Positions 1 through 46,372 of a stretch of 64,000 nucleotides of DNA are shown in pieces (positions within the stretch are counted from its first letter, which is position 1; each line of letters opens with the position of its first letter). The DNA comes from a virus, in the IMG/VR virus record IMGVR_UViG_3300045988_076504, positions 36,080 to 100,079 of that record. One strand, given 5' to 3'. Position numbers and translations under genes: made by a program. The notes beneath the pieces were generated by a model, which did no database searches, was not told where the DNA came from, and worked only from the letters and a program-made list of their open reading frames with translations.

Positions 1-260
1 ACTCTACTGATACCCGCAATAAGTGGACAAAGTGGGCTATAATAGACGTAGATACAATGTACACTACAAACAGGTCAAATATGAATAGTGTTTACAAATA
101 GCTGGGTAAACAACTACTTAGTAATTTGAGCGTGGATACGAATGGAAAAATCACATTCAGTTCTACTTATTCCGGAACAAGTACAGCAGGAATCAAATCA
201 CAATCTAAAGATATATTAACACCTATACTAAAATCGGAAATTACTACATTATTTAATTGA
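1..260 (+). CDS. C-terminal part of a late virion/tail protein (5' end lies outside the window)
   Basis: Frame 3 is open from the window edge to TGA 258-260 if TAG 99-101 is read as sense. It is co-oriented with the next late gene and 6 nt upstream of it. Confidence 0.5.
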
Positions 261-266
261 TAAAAT

Positions 267-914
267 ATGGCACAATATTTAGATTTAAACGGATTGCGTA
301 CGGTTGTAGACAATATAAAAAACATTAAATCCCCTGTTTGTTTACCTACTTACGATAGGCGTTCCTCCTTATCATCCACAGCAACTGTGAAAAATGAAAC
401 TGCCTCCTCATATACACTTATTATGTATGATACGAGGAGCTTGAGGTTTTTAGCATTGTCGAATGGAGCATTTTACACCAGGTGGGATTCTAATTCGAAA
501 CATTTGAGTTACGATTGTTATGGAACACCATTGGACACTGGTGTACAACCTAAATTTGGATATTTATATGCAAATGTATTTGATAATACATTATAGTTAG
601 GTGGAACAAATGGACAACTTAAAAATGTGGCAAATTATACAGCCCCAACAACATGGACTACTGTAACAACGTCTCCTATAAGTGGTGGGGATACAATTAC
701 AAAAATGGAAAAAAGCGATACTGGAAATGGTACATATTTGTGGAGAATAACTGTAAAAAATCCAAATGCGGACGCTTGTGACTTTCTCGTATAGGATGCT
801 GCCGGCAATAATTTCATACAGTATGGTATATATTTAGAAGGTAAGCAGTCTGGTACGTTTACAATAGAATTACCAAAAACAACTCCAAATGACCGTTTTT
901 ACGTCACAACATAA
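267..914 (+). CDS. Late structural protein of unknown function, 215 aa, with 2 in-frame TAG
   Basis: ATG 267. Track ORF 267..596 stops at TAG 594-596. The same frame stays open through TAG 792-794 to TAA 912-914. The antisense track ORF 635..817 is a shadow. Confidence 0.65.
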
Positions 915-971
915 TATATTTTAACATATTTTATCAAAAAATTGTACATTGATGCAACCATAAACGCATAA

Positions 972-1035
972 ATTTCCGTTATGGAAATATCAGCGGTAGC
1001 ACTTAGCTACCAGATTTATAGGTGTGCGAACACCT
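972..1035 (+). other. Three tandem perfect 6-bp stem-loops in a late intergenic region
   Basis: atttcc(972-977)/ggaaat(983-988) with loop gttat. ggtagc(995-1000)/gctacc(1006-1011) with loop actta. aggtgt(1020-1025)/acacct(1030-1035) with GNRA loop gcga. A 14-nt palindrome taacttgcaagtta follows at 1047-1060. Confidence 0.5.
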
Positions 1036-1197
1036 GTAAATCCCTATAACTTGCAAGTTATTTTATGAAGGTTCATAGCCATTTTTTAATTAATCCTTTT
1101 ATTTCTTTTAACTACGGAAGATAAAATAACTGAGAAGGTTTATTGTTACGATCATCCGAGCGCATACAATAACCACGACGCTCTTGCTATAGCAGCT

Positions 1198-1947
1198 ATG
1201 GCAGGACGCAATAATGAAGATCCGTTGGCAATGGCATCTATGATGAATAACAACTAGTGGATGAACAATCCTTTTATCTATTTGGTATTCCTCATGATGT
1301 TCGGTAATGGAGGTTTCTGGGGTAACCGTAATGGTCTCCAAGGAGCTGAAATTCAAGGACAGCTTGATTCTCTGCGTAATCAGATGGCAGATAACCAGAA
1401 TAGCAACTTAATTATGGGAGCTATTCAAGGTAATAACTGTGATCTGAAAGCTCTTGCTTCAAATCTTAACTGTGATTTCAACCAGTTACAAAACTCTGTT
1501 TGTGCGGTACGTTCCGCAATTGAACAGGTTGGTGGAAAGATCGGTTATAGCGCAGAACGAGTAATCAATGCAGCTAACTTAGGTGATATGAATATAATTC
1601 AGCAACTTAAGGACTGCTGCTGCCAGACCCAACAGAACATTATCAAGATGGGTTATGAGCAGTAGCTCGCAACATGTAATCAGACTAACACTTTGCAGAA
1701 TGCAATCCAGTATGTGGCAACAGGCGTTGAACGAGGATTCGCTGCATCAAGTTTCCAGAACGCACAAGATAAATGTGATATAATCCGTTCTAGCCAGGAT
1801 AATACTCAACGTATCATAGATACATTGAATAATCACTGGCAGTGTGATTTACAATAGAGGTATAATGATGCAAGACTAGAGCTCAGTCAGCAGAAACAGA
1901 ATGCTACGTTAATCGCAGCTCTGAAACCTGCTGCAGCTGCTGCATAA
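1198..1947 (+). CDS. Cys-rich late protein of unknown function (~249 aa, 3 in-frame TAG; start could be 1198, 1231, 1240 or 1261)
   Basis: The frame is open from 1090. TAGs lie at 1255-1257, 1663-1665 and 1855-1857. The stop is TAA 1945-1947, followed directly by a strong terminator. Confidence 0.6.
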
Positions 1948-1960
1948 AATGGTTAATAGA

Positions 1961-1997
1961 AGGGAGAGGGACAATATCCCTTTCCCTTTTTTGTTTT
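1961..1997 (+). terminator. Rho-independent terminator
   Basis: A 10-11 bp stem, gggagaggga(1962-1971)/tccctttccc(1977-1986), with loop caata, followed by ttttttgtttt. Confidence 0.8.
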
Positions 1998-2014
1998 ATT
2001 TAAATTTACAAACT

Positions 2015-2500
2015 ATGTTGTTTAAAGATTTGAATCCAAATTATCCGATATTTATCTTCAATAAAACAGATATTACTGTACAGGAAGGTAAAGTTATAAA
2101 CAAAGGTCTTCCGCATTTTGATATGTTGCATAACACTACTTCTGCGATGGTTACAGATATAACTATCAAAGCTGGAGATGTTACAAAAACATATACATTT
2201 AAAGACGATACTGAAATAGGGTATGCTGAAAACCTTGTAATATCTCCAAATAGAGATGCTATATTACGTGAGGTAGAATCTATCAAAGATCAATCTGAAC
2301 AAGTTCTTAACCAAATTGATCTACATAAAGCAACAGTAGAAAAATGTAACAAAGTATTGTCCGAGTTTAATCCGGTGTTTAAAGAGAAGAAAGAAACAGA
2401 ACAACGTTTCTCAAAACTTGAATCTTCTGTTGAAGATATTAAAACAATGATTTCAAATCTTTCAAACACTATAAACAATAATAACAATGGACAAGTCTAA
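2015..2500 (+). CDS. Late protein of unknown function with a coiled-coil C-terminus (161 aa)
   Basis: ATG 2015 is the first start after the terminator and shares its frame with track ORF 1949..2500. The stop is TAA. Confidence 0.6.
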   Translation: MLFKDLNPNYPIFIFNKTDITVQEGKVINKGLPHFDMLHNTTSAMVTDITIKAGDVTKTYTFKDDTEIGYAENLVISPNRDAILREVESIKDQSEQVLNQIDLHKATVEKCNKVLSEFNPVFKEKKETEQRFSKLESSVEDIKTMISNLSNTINNNNNGQV

Positions 2501-2984
2501 AATGAAAATGCACATAGACAGAATATCTTCTTTAATGGAAGAGCATAGTGATTCTGAAGTAAAGTGCGCAATAGTAAAAACGATCATGTCTTATCTATCA
2601 AAATGTGATGATAATACAATAAATGAGTTGTTAGATTGTACTGAAGGTTTATGTAATTATAATAACTTCTTAACGCAAAAGGAAGCATATGAAATACTAA
2701 ACAAGTTTAAAAACTCGAATGGTAGTTCTGGTGCCCCTTTAAACATGTCAATACTTGAAACGCTTAAAGATGAAAACAAGTGCATAGACGATGCTCCAAA
2801 TTATAATAAATGGGCATTATATGTCACAATGTGCAAGTTTGCATCGGATCAAGGAGAGGTTATTTCTAAACTTGTGAACAATGATCATAATGCTTATATT
2901 AGTGCTTGTTATGATATGTCTGTTGCTCAGCTTAAAGATGCTGACAGACCGAGATGGGTAAGACAATACTTTAATTTATTTTAA
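2487..2984 (+). CDS. Late protein of unknown function (165 aa)
   Basis: Intact track ORF. It overlaps the upstream gene by 14 nt and ends 2 nt before the next ATG. Confidence 0.6.
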   Translation: MDKSKMKMHIDRISSLMEEHSDSEVKCAIVKTIMSYLSKCDDNTINELLDCTEGLCNYNNFLTQKEAYEILNKFKNSNGSSGAPLNMSILETLKDENKCIDDAPNYNKWALYVTMCKFASDQGEVISKLVNNDHNAYISACYDMSVAQLKDADRPRWVRQYFNLF

Positions 2985-2986
2985 AT

Positions 2987-5866
2987 ATGAAAATTCAAAA
3001 GAAGCAAGAAATTGAATTCTTTGGTACCAAAACAGGCAATGCTAATTCTATCGCTTTAGGCTACGCAACTGAGACTAAGAACTTCGGGGAAGTTGCTGTA
3101 GGTGTAATGAATAAGTCTACCGCTGCTAAAGATCCAAATAGCCCAAAAGGCGTTTGCGCTGATTCTGATGCCACTTTGTTCTCTGTTGGATGTGGTGGAA
3201 GCGGGGAACGAAAGAACGCGTTAGAAGTAAAAGGAGACGGCTCTGTGTTGATTTCTGGAGAGAATGGTGATATAAATGTTGCCGATAAAATTAAGCAGGC
3301 TCTCGATACAGATGCAAGCATTGAACTTGTTAAATCTACAGAGAGTGATCTCCAGTATACACTTATGGTTAACAACGAGTCACGTGGAAGCATAAATATT
3401 CCAAAAGATCAATTCTTGAAGAATGTAACGTATGATACTGAAGCTAAACAGCTTGTATTTACGTTTGTAACACTTGATGAGGAAGAGCATGTAGAGAAAA
3501 TATCTATCAACGATCTGAAAGATGTCTATACAGCTGGTGATGGTATTAACATAGATAATAATGTAATATCTGCTGATTTTAGTTCTGTCATGACAGCTAT
3601 ATCTGATGAAAAGACTTAGAGGGAAACGACTGATAACGAAATAAAGTCTACATTAGATACTAAAGCTGATTTAAATAATGCCATAACTTATCGTTCAGAT
3701 AATATAAGTGGATTATTTAACAACGATGGAAACAAACAAGAATCTTATGGTTATCGTTGTGTGGATATAGGTTTTAATAATGTAAGAAACTTTAGCAATA
3801 CTTGCATTTCTATAGGTAGCGATAACAACCAACTTGAAAGAGGCGATAACACTATTTGTATGGGTACATCAAACACTTTTAACTATGGTAGTGTTTGTGT
3901 TGGAGACAATATAAAATCCAGATATACTAATTCTATATATATTGGAAGTGGAATAACCACAAAACAAGACACCTTTGGTTCACTTAACACTATAATTGGC
4001 AGTTATGACGGTTTAAATGTTGCTTGTACACCGATTGGATTTATTAGCGTTGGGTTCGGACCTCGTGCCGACAAAGACGGAAAAGTACTTTATCAAATCG
4101 GAGCTCATCATGCTACAGATTATAACAAAGATAATTATAATCTAGAAGAAACCCTTACTTCTGATTACGATCATAAAAAGTATATTTATGGTATTGGTGG
4201 TTATGATGGTACAGACCCTGTAACAACTAAAGCTAAATCTCTTCAAGAAGTCTTAGATACTAAAGCTAACAAAACAGATGTAAATAGTCGTTTAGATGAT
4301 TTACAAAACCGTTGTTTTAAGTTTGGAATTGATGGTAGCATAGCAGCTCCATATAAAGGAATACCTACAGATGATTCAAAACTAAAGATTAAAACATTAA
4401 AGGATAATCAAGAATATACTTATGTTAACGTAAGTGGTATTTTAGAGCCTGGAGACCCAGCTTATAATTGTATATATGATAAAACTCTCGATAAAACCAT
4501 TAATATTATAACTAGTGATGACTTTATTCCAACAAATAAAGAAGGTGATTTTTTTAAAACATCTGAATCTCTTGATTTAACTCACACATTTTATCTTGAT
4601 AATGAAAAGACAGGTATTGTTGATAATCTTACTCAACTTACCATTGAAGAAACTAATGTTTTTGTAAATTTTCCGTATGTGGAAATTAATGATAATCTTA
4701 ATGACAGTGAAGTACCACAATACATATATGATGCAACTGATAATAAATGGATAGAAGTTGTTGATACATTTTATACCAGTTCGTATGTTGGTTTTAATAC
4801 AGAAGAACCATTAGATTTGACACATGAATTTTATAATAATGTTATAGGAAATTGGACAAGCGTTGGAGAACACTCTACAGCATTAGGTTGTTATGCGTAT
4901 TCAGGTGGAAACGAATCTATAGCATTAGGATGTTTTACAACAGTAAACGGCAATGGTTCTACATGTTTAGGATATAATTCACAAGTAGATGGAGACGAAT
5001 CTATTGTATTAGGATATAATTCATCATCAAAGGCGAGTTATAATGTAGTATTAGGACGAAAAATAAAATCTTACGCAGGTGCGTCTAATAGTGTAGCAAT
5101 AGGAACTGGTCTAACTGTAAATGGAAATCATGCTATCGGGATAGGAGATGGAATAGATTTAAATAATGATAGGAGTATAGCAATAGGAGATGTTAGCTAT
5201 GTATCTGTTGGAGCTATAGCTATTGGTAATAATAATAATGCAACAGGAGACACGTCTATAGCTATTGGAGATACCACTCGCTCAAAGGGTAACTATTCTA
5301 CATGTATTGGTTATCGTGCAAATGCAACCGGTCTTAATTCTTCAGCTTTAGGTGCTTATTCAAGTACTGGTGGAGATTATGCTATAGCTCTTGGTAAAAA
5401 CATGTCAAATACTAAATCAATATTTGGTGTTGGTTTTAATGGTGTGAATGGTATCGATATGGATAGAGATAATTATGGTCTTTATCTTAAAGGTTTTGGT
5501 GGTTATGATGGAACTAATCTTGTAGTACCGAGTGGAAATACTGAAACTCTCAATCCTGGTATTAAAAGTGTTCAGCAAATAATTAATGAAAAAGCTGATG
5601 CTTCTGCTTATTATACTAAGACTGAAATAGATGGTAAGGGTTATCTTACAGCTCACCAATCATTGGATGATTATGCTAAGAAAACTGAAATACCTAATGT
5701 TAGTACCAAAGCCGATCTCGTTGATGGTAAATTAAAAGCAGAACAATTACCTAAGCTCGATAATATTGCGGAAGCCACCACAACAGAAGACATGATAACC
5801 AAATTCAACGATTTACTTGCCGATTTGAAAGCTAAAGGTTATATGACTGCCGACATAACAACATAA
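2987..5866 (+). CDS. Tail fibre/spike protein with YadA-head-like beta-roll repeats (959 aa, 1 in-frame TAG)
   Basis: Track ORFs 2987..3619 and 3761..5866 share a frame and are joined through TAG 3617-3619. Repeats of the type NSIALG / ESIVLG / NSVAIG / RSIAIG / TSIAIG / SSALG / YAIALG occur at the N-terminus and across 4860-5400. Confidence 0.75.
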
Positions 5867-5873
5867 TCATTTT

Positions 5874-6305
5874 ATGACATTTAATATTAATAATACCACT
5901 ATCAAAGGGATATGTAATTTCGAAGGATTAGTACTTACCGCATATAAATGTCCAGCTGGAGTTTGGACAATTGGATATGGACATACTAAAGGAGTTAAAA
6001 AAGGACAAAAGATAACAAGAGAACAAGCTGTAGAATATTTAAAATAGGACGTTCAGCCTATTGTAAGCTACTTAAATAAGCTTGGCGTGTGCAAGACACA
6101 AGGTTAGTTCGGAGCTTTAGTTAGTTTTATATTCAATTTAGGCGTTGGTAATTTTTAGAAATCGACACTATTTAAATATATTAAACAAGGTAAATCTGAC
6201 GACATGATATGTAATTAGTTCATGCGTTGGACAAAAGGTGGCGGTAAAGTACTACCAGGATTAGTAAAACGAAGATAGTGGGAGTGTAACATGTGGAGAA
6301 GCTAA
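5874..6305 (+). CDS. Endolysin, GH24 phage lysozyme family (143 aa, 5 in-frame TAG)
   Basis: Reading TAG as Q gives NFEGLVLTAYKCPAGVWTIGYGHT ... QFGALVSFIFNLGVGNF ... LPGLVKRRQWE, which carries the lysozyme signatures. It is missing from the ORF track because it is cut into pieces under 60 aa. The stop is TAA 6303-6305. Confidence 0.85.
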
Positions 6306-6306
6306 T

Positions 6307-6822
6307 ATGAATAACATACTTACTTAGATTGGATATATGTTCAATTCTATATGTGGACAAAGCCAATGGGCTAAGTTATGGCTTGGAGCGAGTGCGTTGC
6401 TCACAGCATACGTTGTCCCTATAGTAGGATTATTAGTCGCTTGTTTTGCATTTACTACCGTAGATATGATCTATGGTATAAAAGTAGCAAAAAAGCTAGG
6501 ACAAAAAATCACTAGTAAGAAAAATTGGCGTGGTACACTCTAGAAAATAAAGGATGAATTCACCATTATATTATTAGCACATTTGTTGGAATACGTTGTG
6601 CTAAACGATCAGATACCATTTGTACTAACAGGCGGCACTACAGTTATAATATGTTTAACTGAATTATGGTCTATTCTTGAGAATTTACATACATTGGATC
6701 CAAACGGTCCGTGGAGATCTTTAGGTATGTTTTTAAAGAAAAAAGGTGGTGAATATACAGGGATTGAAATTAATAATAAAAACGATGATACAAGCGATAA
6801 TAACGTGGTTATTAAACCATAA
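6307..6822 (+). CDS. Holin (LL-H/TcdE-like phage_holin_4 type; 171 aa, 2 in-frame TAG)
   Basis: Track ORFs 6337..6543 and 6583..6822 share a frame and are joined by TAG 6541-6543. It has TM segments, the motif TTVDMIYGIKVAKKLGQKITSKK, and TELWSILENL. It lies immediately after the endolysin. Confidence 0.7.
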
Positions 6823-7429
6823 AAGAATCGCTGTAGAAGCCTTTTTAAGCCTTTGTGTGACATTATCTGTTTTGTATGGAATAACTATACATAAACAGAA
6901 TTAGAAGCTTACAGAGAGCTTAGAAATAGCTCAGAATAACATTGAAGCCTATTAGGGGTTGTTAAACAACTCTTAGTAGGCTTGTAATGTTTTATAGCTA
7001 GACATGTCTAAACTAAAAGAATCTAACGATAAATTAATACAACAAATAGACAGTGTTCGTAAAGAAAATAAAATTTCTTCAAAAGGTTTAACTACAGCAG
7101 CAACCCAAACGTAGGTTTTAAACGTTAATAGTAGTAAGGGGGTAGGGGGTTAGGTTATAGTTACTAAAGATACTATATATACAGATAGTATTAAATATAA
7201 CGACTTAACCAATGTATATTATAGTATAAGTAAAGACAGTATTTCTATAAGATTAGATGTACGTAATACTTAGTATCTATACATATATAAGAAAAAAGAA
7301 TATAAAAATAAGAAAAACTTCTTTAAACGTTTGTTTACATTAGATTTCAAAAAGGTTACTAAGTACAAGTACAAAATAGTAAATACTAACGAATTACTTA
7401 AAGGGGAAGATATAAGAATTATAGAATAA
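6785..7429 (+). CDS. Spanin-like protein with an N-terminal TM helix plus coiled coil (214 aa, 8 in-frame TAG)
   Basis: ATG 6785 overlaps the holin 3' end in another frame. The N-terminus is AVEAFLSLCVTLSVLYGITI, followed by heptad-like sequence. The stop is TAA 7427-7429. It is invisible under the standard code. Confidence 0.6.
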
Positions 7430-7436
7430 CAATAAT

Positions 7437-8120
7437 ATGAAATTATTTACATTACGTAGTATAGTAGATGATGTTCTACTAATGATTAGAAATAATAATG
7501 TAAGTGAAAGTGAAGACTTCTCAAGAGCTTAGATAGCTCTATGGGTGTTAGCATATAAAGCTGCAATTCTTAAACGAAAACAAGAGAAAGATAAAGAAGC
7601 TGGAAAGAGCGATGAGGATGAAGATGACGATATAACGAAAACAATAGGTCCTGTCGAACTTGTAGACGAAGAGTCTTTAGACGGTACCTGTTTATATAGA
7701 AAAAGAACAAAGGATAAACTTCCAGAATTGTCAGGATCTAGCGATTGCAGTATTATAAGTGTACAGGACCAAGAAGGATGTCCGATACAAAAAATGAATG
7801 AGAAACGCAGACATTTTCACTTCTTTAGAAAATATACATTTGGAGAATTAGCATGGTGGTATGAAGACGAATACGTCTATTTAGAAGGTCTTACGGATCT
7901 AAATAGGTTACGTTATATATGGATCAGCGGAGTGTTTACAGGAGCTGATTCTAATGTAGACGAAGATGATGTAAAAATACCAGGGTGGATGATACCAGAT
8001 ATAAAACAAATGATTATTAAGAACGAGCTCGGGTTTATATTACAAATGCCTAGTGACGATGATAACAACAGTACTATAGCGAGTGTAAAGCCAAGAGGTC
8101 CTCAGCAAGATGAAAAATAA
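7437..8120 (+). CDS. Late structural protein of unknown function with an acidic linker (227 aa, 1 TAG)
   Basis: ATG 7437 is in frame with track ORF 7545..8120 through TAG 7530-7532. Confidence 0.6.
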
Positions 8121-8562
8121 AAAATCATACACTACAAAAGATATGTATAAAGCATATCATAAAATCAACAAAGAAGTACCATACGTTCGTTTTAAGCGCA
8201 TTTTAGATAAATGTAATAAGATTATCCTAGATGCGCTTTTAATGCGTTCAGAACTAATTAAAATGCCTTCTGGGTTAGGTTATATTTGTATATGTAAATA
8301 TAAACCCAAGACATATACAGCTAAAAGTTTATCTGTAGATTATAAAGCATCTAAAGAATGTAACAAACGTATATATCACTTAAATGAACATTCCGATGGT
8401 TATAAATATCGTCTATTTTGGTCTAAGCAACCTAGAATTTTTCCAGATATATATAAATACAATTTAAGTCTTGTACGAACAAATAAACGAGCGTTGGCAC
8501 AATTAATATTTAACAATCACGACTATATAAATATAGATGATATACAAATATACAAAATGTGA
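8110..8562 (+). CDS. Small basic protein of unknown function (150 aa)
   Basis: Intact track ORF. It overlaps the upstream gene by 11 nt. Confidence 0.55.
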   Translation: MKNKKSYTTKDMYKAYHKINKEVPYVRFKRILDKCNKIILDALLMRSELIKMPSGLGYICICKYKPKTYTAKSLSVDYKASKECNKRIYHLNEHSDGYKYRLFWSKQPRIFPDIYKYNLSLVRTNKRALAQLIFNNHDYINIDDIQIYKM

Positions 8563-8581
8563 ATCTGTTATTGCAAAAATA

Positions 8582-9397
8582 ATGGCAGATTCTGACATGT
8601 CGGAAAAAAATATGAGAGTGACCGACATTAGAGAATGGATATTTGAAGCTATCGAACACATAGGAGCTCCGATGTAGTATATACAAAAAGAGTCTGGTCA
8701 AGATGATTGCCCTGTATTTGAAATACATGAAAATCAAATACCAATACCAGACGATTTACATACATTAAATGGAGTTGCATATTCAAATAATCCAGACGGT
8801 CCTTGGATACCAGTCAGATCTGAAACAGCTACATTCAAAGGACCTAAAAGACACTCGCACCCGCATCACGAACCAGAGCAACCAATGAGGTACAAATTAC
8901 CTACAACGCAAGCTCAATTTTATGGTAACAATCTTACCAAATATGTCACAGACAGAATCCCAAATGAGGAGAATGATGTTACGATGTTTACAAAACCTGG
9001 ATGGATTGTATTTAATAAACCGAAGGGATATGTAAAATTGTCATATAAAGCAATCGCAACTGATGAGCGAGGTTATCCATTAATACCAGATTTAGCATCG
9101 TATCAAGAAGCTGTATATTGGTATGTAATGTGGAAATTATCATTTAACAAATATTTAAAAGGAGAGCTTGGTGGAAGTGTACGTAATTCCCAACAGGTTT
9201 ACTTTTATTTACAACAACAATGGAATTTCTTTAGAAATTGTGCATATGCTGAAGCAATGATACCAACAGAAACAGACATGCGTTCTATCAAAAACGAATG
9301 GAATAAATTAATACCAGATTGGGACAGCGATGATAATTTCTTCAGCAGTGTCGGAAAGAGACAATTAAATTATAACGATTATTATTATGGATACTAA
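8582..9397 (+). CDS. Tail/connector-associated structural protein (271 aa, 1 TAG)
   Basis: ATG 8582 is in frame with track ORF 8885..9397 through one TAG (atg tag tat, ~8675). Confidence 0.6.
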
Positions 9398-12300
9398 TCA
9401 AAACAACACCTCAATTAATGTATTCAACAAGGGTATGAATACAGATGCTTCATATTCTAATATACAAGAAGGTCAGTATTTATACGCTGAGAATCTTAGA
9501 AATTATATGCTAAATGGAGACGCTGACGGCTTTAATACAAACCAATATGGATCTATACAGCCAATAGAGGGGTGTGACTGGGACAAACTTAATATTAAGC
9601 TTATTGATTTTGACGGAAACCCATTTCATATAGATTCTATTTTAGCTGCGGATACAATACGTAATATTGGTATTATAATAGTTAAAGGTTATGTAGAAGA
9701 TGAAAATTCAGAACAGTAGTTAGAGCAATGGGCTGTTGCGCGTGCAACATTATCTGATGAAAAAATACTGGAAGACATTAAAATAATATACTTGTCTGGA
9801 ACTGGTGTTAAAAATTAGTTAGACGGGGAAAAGGTGAGTATTGTATTAAAATACGAAACCGAAGAAAATATAAAACTGTATATCGCAGACGGTAAGCATT
9901 TCATGCTCGTATTGAATGTTGCTGAAGGCAATGATGGTCACAATGAAAAAATATCTGGGGATTTATCAAAAATAGAAAATATACAATGTGTATTTTTAAA
10001 TCCTATAAAGTTTTTAGGTCTTACTACAGGAAATCTTACAGCAGGCGTTGTCCAATATGCTTATAGACTATATGATCAAAACGGATCTGCAAGTCCAATG
10101 TCTTGTATTACAAACACAATACAGCTGGTACAAAATGAAGAAAACAGCGCTTCTAAAATAACAAAAGGTGGAAGTAAGGGTAAGTATATAGGATGTGGTG
10201 TAAAATTACAAATAAAATTAGAAAAGGAAGAAAACGCAGCATATAATCATATAGAAATATATAGAATATATTATGAAGAAGGAGGACAACTTCCGAAAGT
10301 TGGCGTAATATATAATAAAAAAATACCACAACTCGATACTTTAGACTATACTGATTTTGGTCAGGGATATTTGTCAGAAATAACAGTAGACGAATTTAAC
10401 AACATATCTGGAATACATATCATTCCGAAAGTATTGGAATCTAAAAACGGACGATTATTTGCAGCAAACATTAAAGATTCAGCATCATCACTAAACGATA
10501 TTGCAAATCACTTTGACGCTAGAGCATTTAGGTTCAATAGGTAGAATAAAACAGTATATTCACAGTACTCCGATCAAAACACTACGTATTCAAAAACAAG
10601 AGAAGATATAGATAAAGAGTCTTATTATGATAGTAAAAATGATACGTCTGATTATTTTAACGAATACAACGATGTAACAAAAACTTTTAATATCGAAGAT
10701 GATGTATGTAGACTTGGAGAACTTACGGAAGATGGAACTGGTGCATATTACGGAGGATACGGTAAAAATATAAAGTGGAGGTTTGTAATAACAGAATTAG
10801 TTGGAGATTATTCTAATGTAGGAAACCCACATGGAACGCGTTAGACAGATCCAGAATTTTTATATGAAAACGTCGGAGCTGTCGGAAATACGTTGATAAC
10901 AAATTATGAGGAAAGTAGTGATGGAGTAAAACCGTTATCATATGACAACAAACTGAAATACGGGTATGTTATATAGAACCTCGAAACTGGTGATAATTCT
11001 ATGGAATTGTAGGACGAGATTGATTATACAGATTTGTTTGAATCTTCAAATAAAACATGCACATATTCCAACTCATGTATATCTTATGGATTTAGATCTT
11101 TAAAAAGAGACGAACTGTATAGGTTTGGTATAGTATTGTATAACAAAAGAAACGAAGCTACGCCTGTTATGTGGATCGGTGATGTTAGAACACCTCCGTG
11201 TAATGAAAAATGTTTTGACACATATGAATCGAATGTACATAATACAAGTCTTGTTGTGAGACCTTTGGGTATTGAATTTAAAGTAGATCTAACAGATATA
11301 AATAAGTACATAGCTAAGAACGATGAATACAACGAATCGGATCAAATAGTAGCGTATGAAATAGTACGTTGTTACAGATCGTCCAAAGATGTTTAGAATA
11401 TAGCGCAAGGTGTATTATCAAGACCTGTAAGGAAAACAAAAAATGAGTACGCGGCAAATGTTAAGATAGATCCTGTGTATACACCAACAGGTATACTTAC
11501 AACACAATCGTATTGGAATGGGGAATCCTGGGTATCACATAATGGATGTCTTAAAAACGTGTGGGACGCTGGTAAGCTAAATGATGCAAATGGATATGAA
11601 GCAGATAATTTCGACAACCGTACATTGTTTTAGTTTATATGTCCAGAGGCTTGTTACAACGGAGATTACATGAAAAGCGTAATAGACAATACTAATTTGT
11701 CAATATAGCCGTTTTTTTATATATTCGGTCAAGGTAAAGGTAAAACACATGCGTTAGATACTTGTAACGAGCTCATAACTGTTAGTGCCGACAAATAGGA
11801 GCGTCCGAAAATAAAAGATCATATATTATTACAATCTTATTATTATACAAGTACAGCGTGGTCAAACAATCAACAACCACTACCTCCGTATGCTACATCT
11901 TTTGACATTGTAGATAAAGAGTCTATCAATATAAATGGAGCTGTTATTAAGCTAGATAGAAATCCGTATGTAGATTACGGGGTTGATTTAAAGACAGACC
12001 AATGGGATTATTTACCTGTAGATCAGTTTGTATTACGCTCATATGAATCTGGATTTATAGACGATCCTATAAAACTTGTATTGTTTGCTCCGAGTGGAGA
12101 ATCTAAACAAACATAGGAAAAGTACCCGAAATTAAAAGATAATCAACTGTTCTTCATATATGATTCTTACGGAAGAACAGCTATTAATTATTTTGAAAAC
12201 AAAGCGTGTACAAGGAACGGTCAAGATCTTATCGTTGGTGGCGGATTATACAATAATCCTGATATTAAGAATTATGGTTTTAGAAGGTCTGTAGACAGTT

Positions 12301-14591
12301 ATGAATATCTTACTTATAAAACGCCAGAAAGACATTACAAAGGCGCTGCAAATGTCGGATCTCTTGGTATAATAGCAACACCTTCATATAAAAATTATAT
12401 AAACTGTGTACAATATTGTTACGGGTATTCTAAACTATACGAAAAGACACCATTCCTATATACAAGAGCGTACAGTAATTCAAATGAAACTACCAAATTA
12501 TTTGGTGACGCAAATATTGTAAATTCATATAATATAAAAGGAACTGAGAAGTATAATGTTAAGGATGCAATTATAACAAACGCTCTCGGATGGGATGATA
12601 TTTTTTCAGCAGACACTCAGAACGGAGCAACTTCATGGTCGTATAAATATAATGATTACGTACAACCAATAGGTATATCGACATATTGTAATATTATAAT
12701 GGGAGGAAAATATGGCGAATCTAAATATTTGACCAAAGACAAAGAGCAAGGGTTATTCAATAGCGAAGGAAAAACAAAAATATCATATGGAGACATGCCA
12801 TCTGGATTAGTAGGTACTGCAGGAAATAGCATATTGATAAATCTGGAAAGCGACAATAATATATTATATAAGAATGTAGCTACTGATAGAATATTAAAGC
12901 ATTCTAATCAAATGACATCGTTAAGCGATTATGAATTATGGTACAGCTACATATATGAACATCCAGCTACAGAGCAAAAAACTTTATATTCTACAACGTT
13001 TCCAAATGAGGTTACAGTAGACGAGGCTATAAGCGAAGCTTCTAGAGACAAATCTTGTATATACGACAAGGTAGTACGTAAAGAAGAAGGAGAATAGGAT
13101 TTGACTAGCTTTATTTATAGATCTAGTATTGCTGGAACATATCTTTGTAACTTGAAGCAGAACACCGTTCCGTATAATGGTTATCAATACACTTCCAGAT
13201 TAACAAATACGTATGTAAGTTGTGGAAATTATTATAAGTATAATCCGAATAAAAAGAAGATCGTATTTAACGGAGATTGTTATATTCAACCTTTTGAGTA
13301 TGTGAGTGCTCATAAATATTACTATAAAGATGTTGCCAGTCCTGTAACAACGTGTCTTATATACACATTCCCCGTGGAAACAAGTATAAACATGATAACA
13401 TCGTACGGTAATGAATTTTCAAAGAATCTCGACAGTGAAGGATTGTGTACAAATTTACAACAACAACCATCAAATGTGAACGACATTTATGCGTAGGATG
13501 ATCCTGAATATGTATACAATACTGCGTATTCTCAACAATCAAATGCTCAAACACACGAGGTTATAGATATTAGCGATGATAGCAATACCTTATCTTGTGT
13601 AGATTATAGATGTTACTATTCAGAATTAAAATCGAATAACGAAAATATTGATAGTTGGCAAGTATTTAAACCTGCTAATTTTTTAGATGTTGACGATAGA
13701 TACGGAGAAATAACCCATCTTAGAACATTTAACAATATATTAATGTTTTGGCAAGAGCACGCAACTGGACAGTTTAGTGTAAACGAGCGCAGTCAAATAA
13801 GCGATGATTCTGGAAAACCTATAGTTCTTGGTGTTGGAGATGTATTGAGTAGATACGATTATATTGATTATACAACAGGTATGCATAAAGAACAATATTG
13901 CGATACGTGTTCTAATACATCTTTATATTGGTTTGATTCGCACAACAGTGAAATAAAAACATTATCTGGTAACGGGGTTGTACAACTAAATAAAACACAC
14001 AACACGTAGAACATTATGCACGAATATTCTGGAATATCTGCACCAGTTATGTTCTATGATAAAAAATATAACGAGGTTGTTTCTAAAGTATTACACGGAG
14101 ATCCTGATAAATCTATCGCATATAATGAAATGATACAAGCATTTACATCTGTATACGATTTGGATTTCGAAAATCATCTCACGTTCGATAATAATATTTA
14201 TTTGTTAAATCCATCGAAAGAAGGAAAATTAAACATCGGACATTGGAATAATGGAACTCAAAACGTTAATACAAAATTAAAATATGTTGTGAATGCTAAT
14301 CCTGGAATAACCAAAGTATTTGATAATTAGGAAATCGTTACAGAACAATATAAAAACACCAATATTGAAGATTTTAAGTTTACGTGGTATACAGAAATAT
14401 CCGGAGATACTACTTATGAACAACCAAAGATAACAAACAGAGAAGGAAATTATAGATATTCGTTGCCGAGAGTTGGTTAGAATGCGGTCTATGGAAACAG
14501 ATTGCGTGGAAAATACATGATTGGCGAAATAGATAATATAATAACACCTATATCTTATATAATTACTAAATTTAGAAAATCATGTAGTTAA
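9387..14591 (+). CDS. Very large tail (hub/muzzle-type) structural protein, 1,734 aa, ~16 in-frame TAG
   Basis: Track ORFs 9387, 9834, 11034, 12699, 13101, 13743 and 14016 are all in frame 0. All gaps were read codon by codon and contain only TAG. The stop is TAA 14589-14591. Confidence 0.75.
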
Positions 14592-16642
14592 CAAATTATA
14601 AATATATAAAGAATCAAAAACCGAGATATGGCGATGGCAAGTGGGATTGGAATGATTGGTATAATGATACGAAAGGTATTATATCTTTTAATCAACCGAG
14701 CGGAAATAAACATCTAACATGGGGTAACGTACCTGGTCTTGAGAGTGTTATTCGAAGCGATATACAAACAGCTAGTCCAAATCAATTAAATAATATGGTT
14801 AACAAACCAGAACATTCGGAAATAAAACCAGGTTCTGAAAACGGAGGTTCATCTAAAGGCGTATCATCAACAGGATTATCTTGGGATCCTACATCAGCAT
14901 TAATGTCTACAGCTAATTTTGTTGGTGATGTGTTTAGCGCATATAATAGACCTGTTGCAAACGCATCCGAACTTGCTTCTCAAGCTGGTACATCTTATGG
15001 AAATGTAGGAGGAGTACAATATCAAAGACAGAATGCTGTTGACGTTGATCAGGCTGTATAGAATGCTAAAGAATAGGGGAACCAAGGAACAATGTCAACA
15101 GCTATGAGTGGTTTAAGTGCAGGAGCTGCTATAGGTTCTATAGGCGGACCACTCGGCGCAGGAATAGGTGCTGTTGTTGGAGGACTTGGTGGACTTTTAT
15201 TTGGAAATAGCGCAAAACGTAGAGCTATGAAACGAGCACAACGTCAAGGTGAATTAGCACAAAGAATGGCTGTAAATACTAATATATTTAACAGAGCACA
15301 AGCTCAGTCAGATTTGATGAAACAGCAATATATGTAGAAATACGGAAATACTCAAGGTGGTATACTGTATGCTAATAAAGGAAAAGATATACCGATGTAT
15401 AATAGTGGTAAAGATAAAGTATGGTCTCCTGACGGATATGTTTCTGGATTACACAATTCTTATGTAGGTAAAGGCGAAGTGATAGCCAACTTTAGCAGCG
15501 GCAAAGCTTCTGTAATCACAAAAGGTAAGGTTGGAGTTGATAATCAGAAATCATCGGTTAGTGAAAATGACGATAATGTAATACTCGGCAATGATGTTGA
15601 TTTTACAACAGGAAGGACATTCGCAGAACAAGGTAGACCATATGCAGACAAATTACATTTCATAAACCAATCTGAAAAGAAGGTTGGAAAATACGGGAAA
15701 TTGAGTTCTTTGAGTAAGAATACTCAAGATCTTTATAACAAACAAATAGGTTCTACTAAACAACAATTACTTGATGGTTTGAAAGATATTTCAGATAGAC
15801 AAGCAGAACAACATAATTATGAGAACAACATGAAACAATATGCACATTTTGCGAATGGCAAATCTTCTGTATTCTATAATAAATGGTTACCATATATGCA
15901 AATGGCAGTACCTAGTCTAACAGGTATTGCTGATGGAATCGGTAGATACATAAACGCTAACAAATAGAATATTGAAAATAGTGATACGTATTATAGAAAT
16001 CCGTATGCACAACGTGCTCTACAAGGTCTTGCAGGACTAAGATATGATGTAGATCCGGAGTTAAGACAATATGTGAATCAACAAGCTTATAATAAGTATG
16101 CAATAGATCAGCAAGGTGGTTTGACAGCTGGGCAGAAATATATAGCGAAGAATAGCTTGTATAATGATTATATAAATAATGTAGCTAAATTGTATGCAAA
16201 CGCTAACAATATAAATAATCAATACAAGGCACAGTATTATGATCAGCTTATGAAAGCTGGAGAAGCTGAAAGATCTGCTTTGACTGCAGCTAGACGTTAC
16301 GATGCTGATATTTATGCTAAAGCTAGAGCTGCACAACTTAATATGGCAAATCAAGCACGTAAGGATGCACTTGAAAATCTTTATAGAATGGATAAGAGAT
16401 TTGCAGATTATAAGATGTGGAAAGACACAAATAGGATTTACGAGCAGGATGTGGCTAATAAGAAACAAGATGTGCAAAATAGTTTTGATATAGCTAAAGA
16501 AACTGCTGCAAGTAATGAAAGAATCGCAAGAATGATGAATAATTCCAATCGTGTCGTTACAAATCCTATGTTTTATAGATTTACGCCAAGTAGTCTTTTT
16601 GATCAGTTAAACTTTAATTATTCAAATTTCACGAAACGATGA
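14582..16642 (+). CDS. Internal/ejected (cargo-type) protein with a Gly-zipper TM segment (686 aa, 5 TAG; codon 2 is TAG)
   Basis: It starts ATG TAG at 14582-14587, inside an ATGTAGTTAA overlap with the upstream stop. It joins track ORFs 14795, 15092, 15395 and 16073 (frame 2). It contains GLSAGAAIGSIGGPLGAGIGAVVGGLGGLLFG. The stop is TGA 16640-16642. Confidence 0.7.
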
Positions 16643-18363
16643 TATATAGATATGACCAACCTGTAGATATGCCAATTCCAGAACTGTATGATACCGGTTT
16701 AATGTAGGCATACACACAGGCGATAAGAGAGCAATTTGAAAAAGGAGAAAAGCGTTTAGATGAGTTTGCATCAAAGTATGGAAACTTCACATCTCCTTTT
16801 GCTAAAGATATACAAGATTGGGACAGATTGACAATGGGTCGAATAAATAATATTTATAATGACCTTGTATCCAGAGGCATAGATCCATTGCGTAGCAGAG
16901 AAGGTTAGATGCTAATGGCATAGGCTATTAGACAAACACCTGTTGGTAAATTAAATCAATTAAGGCAGTCTGCTGCAATAGGTGAACAATATCTCAAAGC
17001 CAAAGGAGATTTACAAGCGAAGGGTTTGTATAGCCAGGAGATGGAAGATTACTTTTTAAAACATCCTTTTAGTCAATGGAGTACTTCTGAAAACGGATTG
17101 TTTAATAGAACATCTCCTTTGCAATATAAGGATATACATGATATCACTGATGATTGGTTTAAGCATTCTGAGAAAAAATTTGATGAGAAATTAACAAAGC
17201 AGAAAGCGGACGGTTATGATTATTATACCGTTTCTGAAGATGATATACATGGTATTATAAACAGTAATATTAATGACTTTCTGGATAGCGATTACGGTCG
17301 TTATTATTATTAGAAAGAAAAGAATTTGGTTTAGCGTCTAAATCCTACAGCCACACAAGATTAGATAGAAAATATGGCGATGTAGAAGTTCAGAGAAGAT
17401 ATTGTCAATAGAAACAGTGATTATCTAAGAAACGAACGTAAAGTCAACGAATATGCTAAATTGGATTATGAGGATAAACTCGAACGTAGTAGAAAAGAGT
17501 GGGAGTGGGCAAACAAACCGTCTGGAAAATCTGGCGGTCCTCAGGAAACATAGAACTATCATCAGAACATGTTGTTAAACGGTTTGTATAATTTATCAGG
17601 CAATACAGATTTTCTTGATCCTGGTGTTTCAAGCAAAACCAAAACAACTATTGCATCTAAAGCTATTTCTTATTTGAAAGACGCTGTAAAAGGGTTTGAT
17701 ACAAATCCAAAGGAGAGACTAAAACAGATAATAAAATACACAACAATATAGGGGTCTGAAGAAAAACCTTCTTTTATAGGCGAGAAATTTAACCATAAAG
17801 CAGGAAAGTCGTATGGTAATTGGATGATCGGAAACAAAAAGGTCGAAGGCTTGACATTATCTCAAAACGAATTGAACACTTTAATCAGTGATATAAATTG
17901 GGGTGCGATGACAGTAAACAGTAATATTAAACAGTCACATGCGTTACATAACAACATAGCAAACCTTTCCAAAAAAACTATTTCATACGAAGTTACTGAT
18001 AAAAATAATAAATCAAAGAAAGTAACAAAAACAAAACCTAAATACAGATTTATTCTTATTCCGGATACATACAACAATGTCGCAACAACAATAGATAAAA
18101 ACGGAGCTGCTGTACAAGCTAATCGTGGAACGCTGTATGCTGTAAATACAGATGATAACTCAAAACAAATAAATCTCGGTAAAACATTCATACCGTTTAA
18201 TAAAACAGATCCTGTGACTACAGATGGAAAAGCTAAAACTAACGAAATTACAACAGCATCCGGATATAGAACAAGAACAGATCAACAAGAAAATAGTGTA
18301 CGTAAAGTATTAGGTATGAAAAATACCGATAAGGGTGCTAATACGGGAGATTATGATTATTGA
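16639..18363 (+). CDS. Internal/ejected protein of unknown function (574 aa, ~9 TAG)
   Basis: It has an ATGA overlap with the upstream stop. It joins track ORFs 17026, 17569 and 17824 (frame 1). The stop is TGA 18361-18363. Confidence 0.7.
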
Positions 18364-18365
18364 TT

Positions 18366-21300
18366 ATGGGAGATATTAGAAAATTAAGAGCCATCTCCGC
18401 AAATGTGAGACGGCAAGAAGAATATCAGCAGCGATTGAGGAATGAAGAGCGTGAGAAAAAACGCAAAGAAGAACTTCTTCGTCAACGTGAAAAGGAATAT
18501 TAGGAAGCTTTAAAAAAGAGAAAACAGGCTGAAGAAGCCGACGCACTTATACGAAAACATAAGGAGGAAAATAATTATAAGCCTGTTGATTCTCTAATAA
18601 CAAAATCCGAAGAGCCTCAAAAACAAGATTCTGCCGATATAATAAGACCTGTAACTAAACCTCAACCGAGTATATATAAAAGTCCTTTTAGAGAAGATAC
18701 AATATTTGGAGCAGATGGTAAATTAAACAAGTACGATTGGACAAAGTCTGAAAAGGCTATGAAATATACTCCAATGGTACAAAAAATGGTAGATAAATAT
18801 AAGCAGGATGAGAGTGACAAGCGTTTGAGATATGCCACAACTCCTGCTCGTATTGCTAACATGATGGCAGATCAAGCTGATTTGGAAGAAGCTCTTGCAG
18901 CGATGGGTGCTCAAAATGATGCGAATACCATGGCAATGAAAGAGGAGCTTAAAAAGATCAAAAACGACATTCAAAAGGAAGTAGATTGGTATACTGCAAC
19001 AACACCTCGTAGTAATTAGAGTGATATTAGAACAGATAGTTCGCGACTTATTTCTTATTTTGATGCTGGTGGTATAGGAGAAGCTTCTGTAGATATAAAT
19101 CATGCGTTAAAACAGCAACAACAAGCTAAAAAGCTCGGTCTTATTAATGACGGTCAGTCTTTGCTGGCTGACGCGTATCACACGTTCATGATTTCTAAAA
19201 ACGAAGTTCAACGACAAACATCACAAGGTAAAATTAATACTCTATAGCAACAGTTAAATATGGCGAACCCTCAGGGTCTGGACGAGTATCAAGACATATG
19301 TGAACAATATATACAATTAAATCAATGGTTGAACAGTGTTAAAAGAAGATATACTAGCGGACAAGGAATTACACCAGAAGAGAAAAGACAATGGGATCCT
19401 GTACAGAAAAAGATCAACGAGTTAAATAGCAAGAAAGAACAATATGAAAATATGTTTAATAATCTTGCTACTTTTGAAAATCAAACAACTGTTGGAGATT
19501 GGGTGTCAAATTCACAAAAATACTTAAACAAACTCAATTTGGATTTTGGTACTGGTGTTGGAGGATCTTTGAAAGGATATGGTGAAAATATAACCGGTTT
19601 TTAGAAAGCATTGGCCAATAGAGATCAAAAAGCTGTAAATTTTTATAAAAACAAGTTAAAAGGTATATTTAAGAATTTCTCTGCAAAAGGTGAAGAAATG
19701 AAAAAACTTTGGTAGAGAGATTATGATATAGATACTGCAGATTTAAATCGTTGGACATCGGACTACAAAGTATCTGAATATTTCAAACAAAAAGAACAAG
19801 AAGCTAATGATTTAGCATGGTATAATCCTAAAAAACTATGGATGGCTCCGTCTTTGTTAGGATCGTCTATGTCTTCTCCGGAAAAAACATTAATGTCCGT
19901 GGGAGCCGGATTGATAGCTCTCATGGGTTCGATATTAGCTCCTGAGACAGGAGGTGCTTCTATAGCACTTACAGCAGGAGCCGTATCATTCTTAAGCAGT
20001 ATGGCAGCAGGAGCTGATGAGAACTTTGCAAATGTCGCAGATGCTACAAACGAAATAGCCAAGAAAGATTTAGCTAAAAAAGGTCAGATGGATAAATTTT
20101 TAGCTGATGCCAGACAAGTTCTTGGTTATAATACAACAGAAGAGGACGCGTTACAAGCATTTTATCTCGGCAAATATGTTCCGAATGACTTTAAGATACG
20201 TCAGACTTTGTTAGATGCTACGGCAGGTTCTGCAAAGCAGTATTATCAAGGTATGGGTGTAAATACATGGGATTCTCTTGTAGATGCTATTGTTACATGT
20301 ATGCCTACTGGTGGTATTGCAAAAGGATCTAAAGTTGGGTTCTTAACAGATAAAATCGCAAGTAAAGCGGATAGAAAGTTGTTGAAAGCTCAGCTTTCTA
20401 AATATATGAAAGCAAACAATGTATCTCTCAAAGAAGCTATCAAGGCTTTCAATGAAAGCGGTGCTAGTAGAACAACAATATAGAACGCCATAAATGATTT
20501 ACGACAAGCTGTCAATGCTCCTGCTAATTATCTAAGAACGCTATCTAAAGACGTTGTAGAGAAAATGGGACTCCCTGTATTGCAACAAAAAGCAAATGCG
20601 TTGTTAGACAAAGGTCTCGCTAAAATGGCAGAAAGATCTTTAAGACATACAGCTAATGTTACAGACATGCTTGCAGCTGTTCCAGAAAGAGTTTTGAAGT
20701 ATAGAAAAAACTTAAGACTTGCTGGTAAACTAGCAAAAGATCTAGGATGGCGTACAGCAGCGTCTATGTATTCTGAAGGTGCAGAAGAAGGTATTCAGCA
20801 ATTGCAACAATATCAACGTATGGAAGAAAGGTCGAATGCGTATTTCAATGTATTAGAACAACTTCCTCTTACGATAATTGATGGAGCTAAATTATGGAGT
20901 ACGTTCTTATTTAAGAATCCAGAGAACCTTACAGCGCAAGAAAGAGATATAGTACAACAGATGCATGGTGGTATATTGGGAGCTTTGTTACAAGGTGGAC
21001 CGATGATTGCAGCACAAGGAGTTGGTGGTACGTATAAGCAATACAAGCTTGATCAGATTATAATGAATAACCTTTTAGCAGACAATATAGCAACAAATGA
21101 CTATCTTGATAAAGCTAGGATTTTGTCGCAAGAGCTTGGAAAAGGGAATTATAAGAACATTATAGAAACTCTGAATCAATACGATGAGTTAACTACAAAT
21201 ATGCGAAATCGTCATAAAGACGATCCTAATTGGGCGCTTCCTCAAAATCATATAAGCAATCTCCATAAACTTTTAAATGTTGTTGCAAATTTGCAACAAA

Positions 21301-35000: not shown

Positions 35001-35386
35001 TTAAATTTAATCATATTATATCACTACCGTCTGCAAAACAAGCTAGAGCGGAAGGTAGATCGTTACCTATTAGTAGTACAAAACTTAAAATGTGGGACGA
35101 TATAAGTACTGATGTATTACAGTCTTTGATGAGGGCTTCTTTTGAGCAGAATGAAGACGCAGCGCAAGCATTGGTTGATACTGGTGATAAAATAATAACA
35201 CATGATAACGCAAAAGGTGAATCTTTAGATGATAGATTTGCTCCAGCATTGACTCAGATACGCCAAGAGTTAATAGATGGAGGACATGCTCCAAACACTG
35301 TAAAACAACAATAGTCTTTGAAAGATTATCCCGCTAACGAGGCTCTTGATGAATTAGCAGATCAAATAGACGAACAATGTAAATAA
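32084..35386 (+). CDS. Exon 2 of the giant virion RNAP polyprotein (1,100 aa, ~14 TAG), with a NADAR/DUF1768-like C-terminal domain
   Basis: Frame 2 is open from the splice site and joins track ORFs 32633, 33266, 33857, 34190 and 34964. The true stop is TAA 35384-35386. The C-terminus reads HLSNF ... ENAFQALK ... MWDD ... ASFEQNEDAAQALVDTGDKIITH. Confidence 0.8.
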
Positions 35387-35395
35387 CAAATCATT

Positions 35396-42692: not shown

Positions 42693-42697
42693 AAGAT

Positions 42698-45395: not shown

Positions 45396-45419
45396 GACTT
45401 AAAAGTTCTTAGTTAGTAG

Positions 45420-46364: not shown

Positions 46365-46372
46365 ATCTTCTA

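Follow-up and report, generated by a model that had tools for sequence, protein, structure and literature searches.

Are the many TAG codons in the lysis genes of a recoded phage there to time lysis, or are they merely tolerated? The question is raised by a cassette of three genes at positions 5874–7429 of a 64,000-nucleotide stretch of viral DNA (IMG/VR record IMGVR_UViG_3300045988_076504, positions 36,080 to 100,079; hereafter the window), which encodes an endolysin, a holin and a spanin-like protein with TAG read as glutamine (Gln). An earlier reading, made from the sequence alone and referred to here as the sequence-only reading, had called the cassette the most TAG-dense part of the window and had proposed that recoding gates lysis until suppression is established. 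Following this up in the window and in related phages, we find that the enrichment is real and recurs across lineages, and that much of the contrast arises because the other late genes avoid TAG. We think it rather probable that the TAG load of the cassette has been selected to delay or limit the lysis proteins in this TAG-to-Gln crAss-like phage.

DNA and protein searches returned cr130_1 and cr131_1 (Oafivirinae) and several IMG/VR contigs of 95–100 kb as the nearest relatives, and on this similarity the phage is assigned to the crAss-like phages (Crassvirales, Suoliviridae), nearest to the Oafivirinae. The window is divided into a late-gene block on the + strand (1..42136), with 18 tightly packed open reading frames (ORFs) that use TAG as a sense codon, and an early/middle block on the − strand (42192..64000), with 24 ORFs in the standard code. 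All stops in both blocks are TAA or TGA, and no gene on either strand uses TAG as its terminator. With TAG read through, ORFs of at least 100 amino acids cover 50.1 kb of the + strand in place of 25.2 kb; the gain from TGA or TAA read-through was smaller and alike on both strands. In contrast to the late block, the early/middle block has only 4 in-frame TAGs in 5483 codons. Opposite the TAGs of its relatives, a TAG-free relative, L005 (= L168; IMGVR_UViG_3300021255_000891, 8813 bp), shows Gln at 36% of 319 positions, a 10-fold enrichment, and published metaproteomic work shows that crAss-like phages read TAG as Gln (PMC9523058). The late block is recoded from TAG to Gln and the early block keeps the standard code. 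No suppressor tRNA(CUA) was found by ARAGORN or Rfam in the 64-kb window, which represents about two-thirds of a 95–100 kb genome. Since the window leaves part of the genome uncovered, and the tRNA(CUA) of cr130_1 (67368–67441) lies outside the matching region, just upstream of the first late genes, the absence of such a tRNA from the whole genome does not follow.

Inside the late operon the cassette is flanked by a tail-fibre-like gene and by virion genes, and its packing is tight, with spacers of 7, 1 and 7 nt and an overlap. Its first gene (5874..6305, + strand; 143 codons) carries five TAGs, at codons 58, 78, 95, 115 and 135 (6045–6047, 6105–6107, 6156–6158, 6216–6218 and 6276–6278). Translated with TAG as Gln, the product matches Phage_lysozyme (PF00959) over profile positions 2–125 of 125 (E = 1.2e-44; 152 bits, cut-off 22.3) and the phrog_7 endolysin (8.4e-55). 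GH24 lysozymes share the catalytic pattern Glu-x8-Asp/Cys-x5-Thr, which the translation shows as E17-x8-C26-x5-T32. No hydrophobic segment was found in the protein. The full-length profile match, the catalytic pattern and the lack of such a segment identify the gene, by prediction, as a soluble GH24 (T4/P22-type) endolysin that would need a holin. At TAG codon 78, 104 of 120 aligned homologues have Gln. The locus is exchangeable: some relatives carry a GH24 enzyme and others an unrelated protein of ~142–154 amino acids annotated as a putative transpeptidase. Homologues of ~57–64% identity are also found beyond crAss-like contigs, many of them lysozymes of 142–153 amino acids on metagenome contigs, one such record bearing the name 'MAG: lysozyme [Prevotella sp.]'. 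These records point tentatively to a Prevotella/Segatella host and to a gene pool with which endolysins are exchanged.

The second gene (6307..6822, + strand; 171 codons) starts 1 nt past the endolysin stop and contains two TAGs, at codons 7 and 79 (6325–6327 and 6541–6543). Its product matches Phage_holin_4_1 (PF05105; E = 5.5e-12, 46.2 bits, cut-off 22.2) and the phrog_199 holin (1.9e-7), and has hydrophobic segments at residues 31–60 and 106–124. The orthologues in cr130_1 and cr113_1 are annotated as holin, and on these matches we identify the gene as a holin.

The third gene (6785..7429, + strand; 214 codons, with an alternative GTG start at 6746) overlaps the holin gene by 38 nt and carries eight TAGs, at codons 40, 57, 64, 65, 71, 110, 123 and 163 (first bases 6902, 6953, 6974, 6977, 6995, 7112, 7151 and 7271). 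The protein has a single N-terminal membrane helix (residues 15–33), and AlphaFold predicts a helix at residues 13–94 with moderate confidence. The C-terminal half is basic and beta-rich and could not be modelled, its predicted local distance difference test score (pLDDT) being below 50 (mean for the protein, 51.7). Pfam and PDB profile searches gave coiled-coil matches only, the PDB ones being noise (e.g. Beclin-1). The match of the protein to an Rz-like spanin PHROG is weak (E = 0.008); nine of 17 orthologues match phrog_739 (Rz-like spanin; best 6e-6) and others match four more Rz-like PHROGs, all of these matches spanning the membrane helix and coiled coil only. The family has more than 3400 relatives, with a holin adjacent in all those checked, and holin and third gene form a conserved pair across Suoliviridae; some records annotate relatives as 'lysis regulatory protein-like (LysB/FtsL)'. 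No outer-membrane lipoprotein partner was found by a lipobox pattern search of Met-initiated ORFs of at least 25 amino acids in the + frames of 5800–9500, with TAG read through (GTG and TTG starts were not tried). The label of spanin given by the sequence-only reading therefore stands as far as architecture and weak profile matches go. The predicted layout is that of an inner-membrane spanin, and the protein is at most a candidate member of the Rz family that probably works in a spanin-like manner. Further along the gene, a G-rich stretch at 7133–7156 (AAGGGGGTAGGGGGTTAGG) encodes a conserved KGVGGq, whose codons AAG, GGG and GTA are invariant or nearly so over 14 lineages in an AT-rich genome, which suggests a further constraint at the nucleotide level.

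The three genes can be compared with the lambda-type holin/endolysin/Rz-Rz1 cassette. Both combine a soluble muralytic enzyme, a small multi-pass membrane protein and a protein with an N-terminal helix and a periplasmic coiled coil, in the three-step layout of phages of two-membrane hosts, with tightly linked, overlapping genes. They differ in that the order here is endolysin, holin, spanin-like gene, in that no Rz1-type lipoprotein partner was found embedded or adjacent, and in that the Rz-family profile similarity of the third protein is weak. Lambda Rz also lacks the extra C-terminal half of the third protein (~110 residues, basic and beta-rich).

The translations also account for the statement that the cassette is invisible under the standard code. 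Under code 11 the longest pieces of the endolysin and the third gene are 57 and 52 amino acids, as had been claimed, and both genes are hence absent from an ORF list with a 60-amino-acid threshold. The holin does not share this property, as it leaves pieces of 68 and 79 amino acids. The profile searches that had been proposed for the TAG = Gln translations returned the full GH24 and holin matches given above.

Counting in frame, the cassette has 15 TAGs in 528 codons (2.84%) against 121 in 13316 (0.91%) in 15 other late genes (Fisher p = 2e-4). The earlier counts of 5 in 143, 2 in 171 and 8 in 214 codons proved exact on recount, and the figure of about 1% given for the giant RNA polymerase gene agrees with the 41 TAGs in 4275 codons (0.96%) of the ORF at 18360–31187. 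Expressed as a share of Gln codons, TAG makes up 50% in the cassette (endolysin 50%, third gene 57%) and 18% in the other late genes (p = 1e-4). When windows of 143, 214 and 528 codons were slid over all late genes, the maximum always fell in the cassette, which bears out its description as the most TAG-dense part. A blind scan statistic at the cassette scale gave P = 0.0135 under an any-codon null and 0.06 under a Gln-codon null; the enrichment in this single genome is clear for a prior hypothesis and moderate if judged post hoc.

The genes around the cassette are the most TAG-poor of the late block. The tail-fibre-like gene directly upstream (2987–5866) has one TAG in 959 codons (depletion p = 5e-4), and three neighbouring genes, in a region that includes 1949–2984 and 8110–8562, have none. 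A PHROG scan of the flanking genes returned mostly 'unknown function'; their low TAG content could reflect recent acquisition or high expression.

To determine whether the pattern holds beyond one genome, 46 related loci were fetched; all but one use TAG as a sense codon, and they were dereplicated to 16 recoded lineages. The third gene is TAG-denser than the rest of the locus in 16 of 16 lineages, with a median excess of 2.2 TAGs per 100 codons (Wilcoxon p = 1.5e-5), and the enrichment extends to outgroup clades that are only 33–37% identical. For the endolysins, pooling gave a Mantel-Haenszel odds ratio of 2.05 (p = 2e-5; 1.89 and p = 5e-4 without the window), or 2.35 per Gln codon. Their TAGs are unevenly distributed, the GH24 enzymes of the closer relatives of the window having 5–6 and two endolysins of the unrelated type having four. 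Both the enrichment and its conservation across lineages are direct observations, and endolysins of the unrelated type, exchanged into this position, take on the TAG bias as well, some of them being TAG-dense. In the GH24 lysozymes, TAG and CAG swap at homologous Gln sites even at 96% identity, and the count stays at 5–6. Positions thus turn over while the count remains stable, and the TAG load is therefore maintained and not just inherited.

Within the third gene, some of the TAGs do not turn over, and these coincide with an RNA structure. Positions 6938..6991 (sense, + strand) fold into a hairpin of 22 bp in two helices, helix 1 pairing 6938–6942 with 6987–6991 and helix 2 pairing 6946–6962 with 6966–6982 around a loop at 6963–6965. 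It occupies codons 52–69, 116 nt past the holin stop. The minimum free energy is −32.9 kcal/mol (z = −6.1), none of 200 shuffles was as stable, and in a sliding-fold scan of both strands no other 60-nt segment of the 64-kb window reached so low an energy. The antisense strand folds much more weakly (−18.2, z = −2.6) because the stem contains four G-U pairs, which is also why a strict Watson-Crick inverted-repeat search missed it. RNAalifold analysis of 18 sequences predicted 22 pairs, six of them with compensatory double changes; sliding the partners lowers the share of paired alignment cells from 94.7% to 52.5% or less, and none of 500 shuffles reached the covariation score. The outer-stem pattern occurs in at least 119 IMG/VR stretches; among these the inner stem takes 63 different forms, nearly all complementary, and the peptide 41. 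Searched with a covariance model, each genome has a single copy, and the corresponding site in outgroup clades has none.

Helix 2 holds TAG codons 57, 64 and 65, and these three are invariant within the window's clade, in 12 of 12 recoded lineages. TAG-57 and TAG-64 base-pair with each other through their TA dinucleotides and TAG-65 is paired to GCC-TAT, so a synonymous change from TAG to CAG breaks the stem unless the partner changes its amino acid. In the TAG-free L005, one arm has CAG and the other TGG-TGG (Trp-Trp in place of Gln-Gln), and every pair is kept. A search for further TAG-free hairpin variants found only this contig. The persistence of the hairpin without TAG in L005 argues that its function is independent of the TAGs. 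The hairpin is under strong selection, and it explains the three frozen TAGs. No Rfam family matches it, a literature search on the hairpin returned nothing relevant, and it is an unreported item of this region.

What the hairpin may do can be approached by comparison with known RNA structures of phage late and lysis genes, which include RNase III hairpins (the T7 R sites, lambda sib) and intrinsic terminators, together with the take-off hairpin of T4 gene 60 and bacterial selenocysteine insertion sequences (SECIS). A near-perfect sense stem of ~22 bp with an internal loop falls in the size class of RNase III substrates, and by this analogy of length the hairpin may be an RNase III-type processing site. 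By its position it may provide a stable 3' end for the endolysin-holin message. A conserved GUUUUA astride the 3' end of helix 1 recalls an intrinsic terminator: of the invariant GTTTTA at 6989–6994, the first three bases (6989–6991) lie in helix 1 and the last three beyond it. This hints at termination that translation could override. The hairpin differs from a terminator in lying mid-ORF and not at a gene end, and in having only two U's past the outer helix, poor for a canonical one; a terminator consensus scan flags 6945–6983, with only UU beyond helix 1, a stem far longer than usual and three of the GTTTTA bases paired. We regard each of these three assignments as rather unlikely. The stop codons within the stem recall T4 gene 60 and SECIS, from which the hairpin differs in that the UAGs lie inside the stem and not upstream of it, so that the stem is already melted when they are decoded, and in that the stem is kept in the TAG-free relative. 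A further idea, which we consider unlikely, is a suppression-sensing attenuator, in which termination of the transcript or an RNase III-type cleavage would be set by ribosome read-through of the upstream and embedded UAGs.

How might a TAG load act on lysis? A single TAG blocks a protein in the absence of suppression. No lysis protein would be completed until a tRNA with a CUA anticodon is active, and each extra TAG would multiply the dependence on suppression, so that the small lysis proteins would appear after, and in smaller amounts than, the products of TAG-poor neighbours encoded on the same transcript. With 90% suppression per codon, the calculated full-length yield is 81% for the holin, 59% for the endolysin and 43% for the third gene. 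Because it is packed without intergenic space, the cassette has no obvious transcriptional control of its own; with no room for a promoter, codon-level control would be the obvious way to separate the lysis proteins from their transcript neighbours. The conserved hairpin in the third gene would form a second, RNA-level layer. What we infer, beyond the enrichment itself, is that the TAG load was selected to delay or limit the lysis proteins rather than merely tolerated in them.

Several observations weigh against this proposal, the most important of which concerns the source of the contrast. TAG versus CAG is a first-position T/C choice, like TTG versus CTG and TTA versus CTA for leucine (Leu). 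In the other late genes TTG:CTG is 4.6 and TTA:CTA 4.9, whereas TAG:CAG is 0.92 (p = 2e-16), against 3.75 in the cassette. Over the 16 lineages TAG:CAG is 3.26 in the third gene, 3.0 in the holin, 3.3 in the endolysin and 1.00 in the rest (p = 1e-95). The ratio in the lysis genes (~3–3.75) thus matches the first-position T:C ratio of Leu codons (3–5), and it is the other late genes, at ~1, that stand apart. The contrast is mostly an absence of avoidance in the lysis genes, the holin included, and this pattern fits relaxed selection in low-abundance proteins as well as positive selection. The word 'extreme', used for the enrichment by the sequence-only reading, is therefore an overstatement: the lysis genes follow the preference of the genome for T over C, and the other late genes avoid TAG about four-fold.

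The claim that recoding gates lysis likewise goes beyond the evidence. It is the number of TAGs per ORF and not their density that gates a protein, and the giant virion ORFs, with 14–41 TAGs, are more suppression-dependent than the lysis genes; at 90% suppression, virion ORFs with 16, 26 and 41 TAGs would yield 19%, 6.5% and 1.3%. The density of the holin is not raised, being above background in five of 16 lineages, several related endolysins have only one TAG, and three of the eight TAGs of the third gene are fixed by the hairpin. The failure to find an outer-membrane spanin partner in the lipobox search also counts here. At third-gene sites the probability of TAG opposite TAG, P(TAG|TAG), is 0.69 and that of TAG opposite a CAA or CAG codon, P(TAG|CAA or CAG), is 0.48, and a similar excess is seen for Lys and Asp codon states. 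Finally, over the 16 lineages the third gene shows no difference from the other genes in the base that follows TAG (chi-square p = 0.2).

Two specific forms of selection were examined and rejected. A weaker suppression context at the TAGs of the lysis genes finds no support in the chi-square result just given; taken by itself, the window has an A after 4 of 15 TAGs in the lysis genes and after 65 of 121 elsewhere, too few to use. Selection on the stop codon itself at fixed sites was rejected on the retention excess, which resembles that of Lys and Asp codon states, and the hairpin explains the invariant TAGs.

The explanation that competes most directly with selection for timing is relaxed avoidance. 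If decoding by the suppressor is slower or leakier, abundant late proteins would purge TAG, and lysis proteins in low demand would drift to the mutational equilibrium of an AT-rich genome without any role in timing. The TAG:CAG ratio of the cassette is indistinguishable from the Leu ratios, all three lysis genes agree over the 16 lineages, TAG positions turn over freely, and in-frame TAG is below the mononucleotide expectation in most late genes and about at it in the lysozyme and third gene, all as such drift would predict. It does not readily explain why the third gene, at 3.26, exceeds its own Leu T:C ratio of 1.69 (p = 0.004), the only lysis gene to overshoot, or why the bias also arose at this locus in endolysin families that are unrelated. 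Nor does it account for the composition of the proteins. Gln coded by CAA or CAG is not raised in the cassette (2.84 vs 4.11 per 100 codons) and total Gln is slightly up (5.68 vs 5.02); the Gln excess of the lysozyme (7.0%) and third gene (6.5%) over ~5% overall is all TAG-coded, which argues that TAGs were added there and not only swapped. We consider relaxed avoidance possible, though on the unlikely side, and continue to favour selection of the TAG load for delayed or limited lysis proteins.

Two further explanations would remove decoding, or recoding itself, from the account. The TAGs could be kept by the hairpin or by locally TAG-rich sequence: three of the eight in the third gene are paired in the stem, with TAG in 12 of 12 recoded lineages examined, raw TAG trinucleotides in all frames peak at 6001–7557 (51 against a mean of 26), and TAG is raised 1.9-fold in the +1 frame. 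The in-frame excess is nevertheless larger, at 3.1-fold, the remaining frame being at 0.6-fold, and removal of the three hairpin TAGs leaves 12 in 525 codons (p = 0.005), with TAG at 12 of 27 Gln codons compared with 121 of 668 in the other late genes (p = 0.002). The lysozyme has no such structure, and the third gene is TAG-dense also in clades that lack the hairpin (4.55% vs 1.36%, 2.73% vs 1.43% and 1.89% vs 0.94%). This structural or compositional artefact is largely refuted and we hold it to be very improbable. Alternatively, the genes could be decaying pseudogenes with real stops, or TAG could stand for a residue other than Gln, in keeping with their fragmentation under code 11 and the lack of a tRNA(CUA) in the window. 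The latter is offset by the partial coverage of the genome and the location of the cr130_1 tRNA. Read through TAG, the genes give full-length profile matches, their frames are interrupted by TAG only and never by TAA or TGA, the same TAG pattern runs through 42 kb of essential virion genes, intact orthologues occur in hundreds of contigs, and Gln stands opposite TAG in L005. For practical purposes this last explanation, in either form, is refuted.

The core of these observations, TAG-preferring lysozyme and spanin genes, is already known from the work of Borges et al. (bioRxiv 10.1101/2021.08.26.457843), who report that only four gene families prefer TAG over CAA/CAG in TAG-recoded crAss-like phages, namely a lysozyme-type amidase, a spanin, a tail-tube family 1.1 kb downstream and one of unknown function, and propose that recoding blocks premature lysis. 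The fit to a published idea that the sequence-only reading had asserted is borne out by their lysozyme and spanin families. Their cassette and this one share the phage order, the restriction of TAG = Gln to the late block, the place in the late operon and the preference of the lysozyme and spanin-type gene for TAG, with the holin not singled out. They differ in the enzyme, which is GH24 here and a third, unrelated type in some relatives, and in the downstream genes, which are TAG-preferring in the tail-tube family and TAG-poor here (none in 8110–8562 and one in the 286 codons of 8537–9397). The text of Borges et al. has no mention of a hairpin or tandem TAGs. Added here are the replication in 16 lineages, the analysis of avoidance and the hairpin. 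The study reportedly appeared later in Nat Microbiol in 2022.

Examination of the rest of the window revealed several features outside the cassette. A tRNA-like gene at 45452–45523 (− strand; Rfam 36.6 bits, no ARAGORN call) has an anticodon arm of UCAGC-UAUUAA-GCUGA, which gives either a loop of 6 nt or, with a stem of 6 bp, a tetraloop. CUA is not present where an anticodon would normally lie, and the gene may encode a decayed or unconventional tRNA. The early block contains a match to permuted transfer-messenger RNA (tmRNA) at 60874–61104 (− strand; Rfam 57.5 bits, gathering score 47), and cr130_1 too has an annotated permuted tmRNA. The relative L005 is nested among TAG-recoded lineages; in-frame TAG is absent from six complete genes (~2750 codons), another ORF apparently ends in TAG, and the contig looks like a reversion to the standard code or a loss of TAG in this segment.

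The giant ORF at 18360–31187 ends in '...TGSDFD' and is followed by an ORF of 266 amino acids (31284–32084) with LAGLIDADG motifs (LGDGCI, FMDDGA), and the next ORF, 32081–35386, begins 'M-IDKLYM'. Joining the two flanking ORFs (region 31100–32120) yields DFDID, which we take to be the metal-binding motif of the crAss-like virion RNA polymerase, and this backs the polymerase label of the giant ORF. The polymerase gene thus looks, from its reading frames, to be split by an intron of ~0.9 kb with a homing endonuclease, inserted exactly in the catalytic motif. An Rfam scan gave no intron match in this region, and a PHROG scan of the C-terminal 1753 amino acids of the giant ORF gave no match. After the hairpin in the third gene, the next most stable local folds on the + strand lie at 986–1045, in the gap at 914–1198, at 1931–1990, at a gene junction, at 35436–35495 and at 42171–42230 (−23 to −27 kcal/mol per 60 nt); the last, where the late and early blocks converge, is probably a terminator.

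The cassette is one more independent example for the published idea on how recoded phages time host killing, and it sharpens that idea in two respects: the contrast comes mainly from avoidance of TAG in the other late genes and not from its over-use in lysis genes, and the same bias appears in unrelated endolysins at the same locus. The selection on the hairpin was strong enough that the lineage that lost TAG took Trp-Trp for Gln-Gln. Were the hairpin a suppression-sensing attenuator, it would make the third lysis protein and the downstream virion genes depend on the start of amber suppression, and no control of this type has been described in recoded phages. In the abundant and mostly uncultured crAss-like phages of the gut, the hairpin offers a handle on the post-transcriptional control of lysis.

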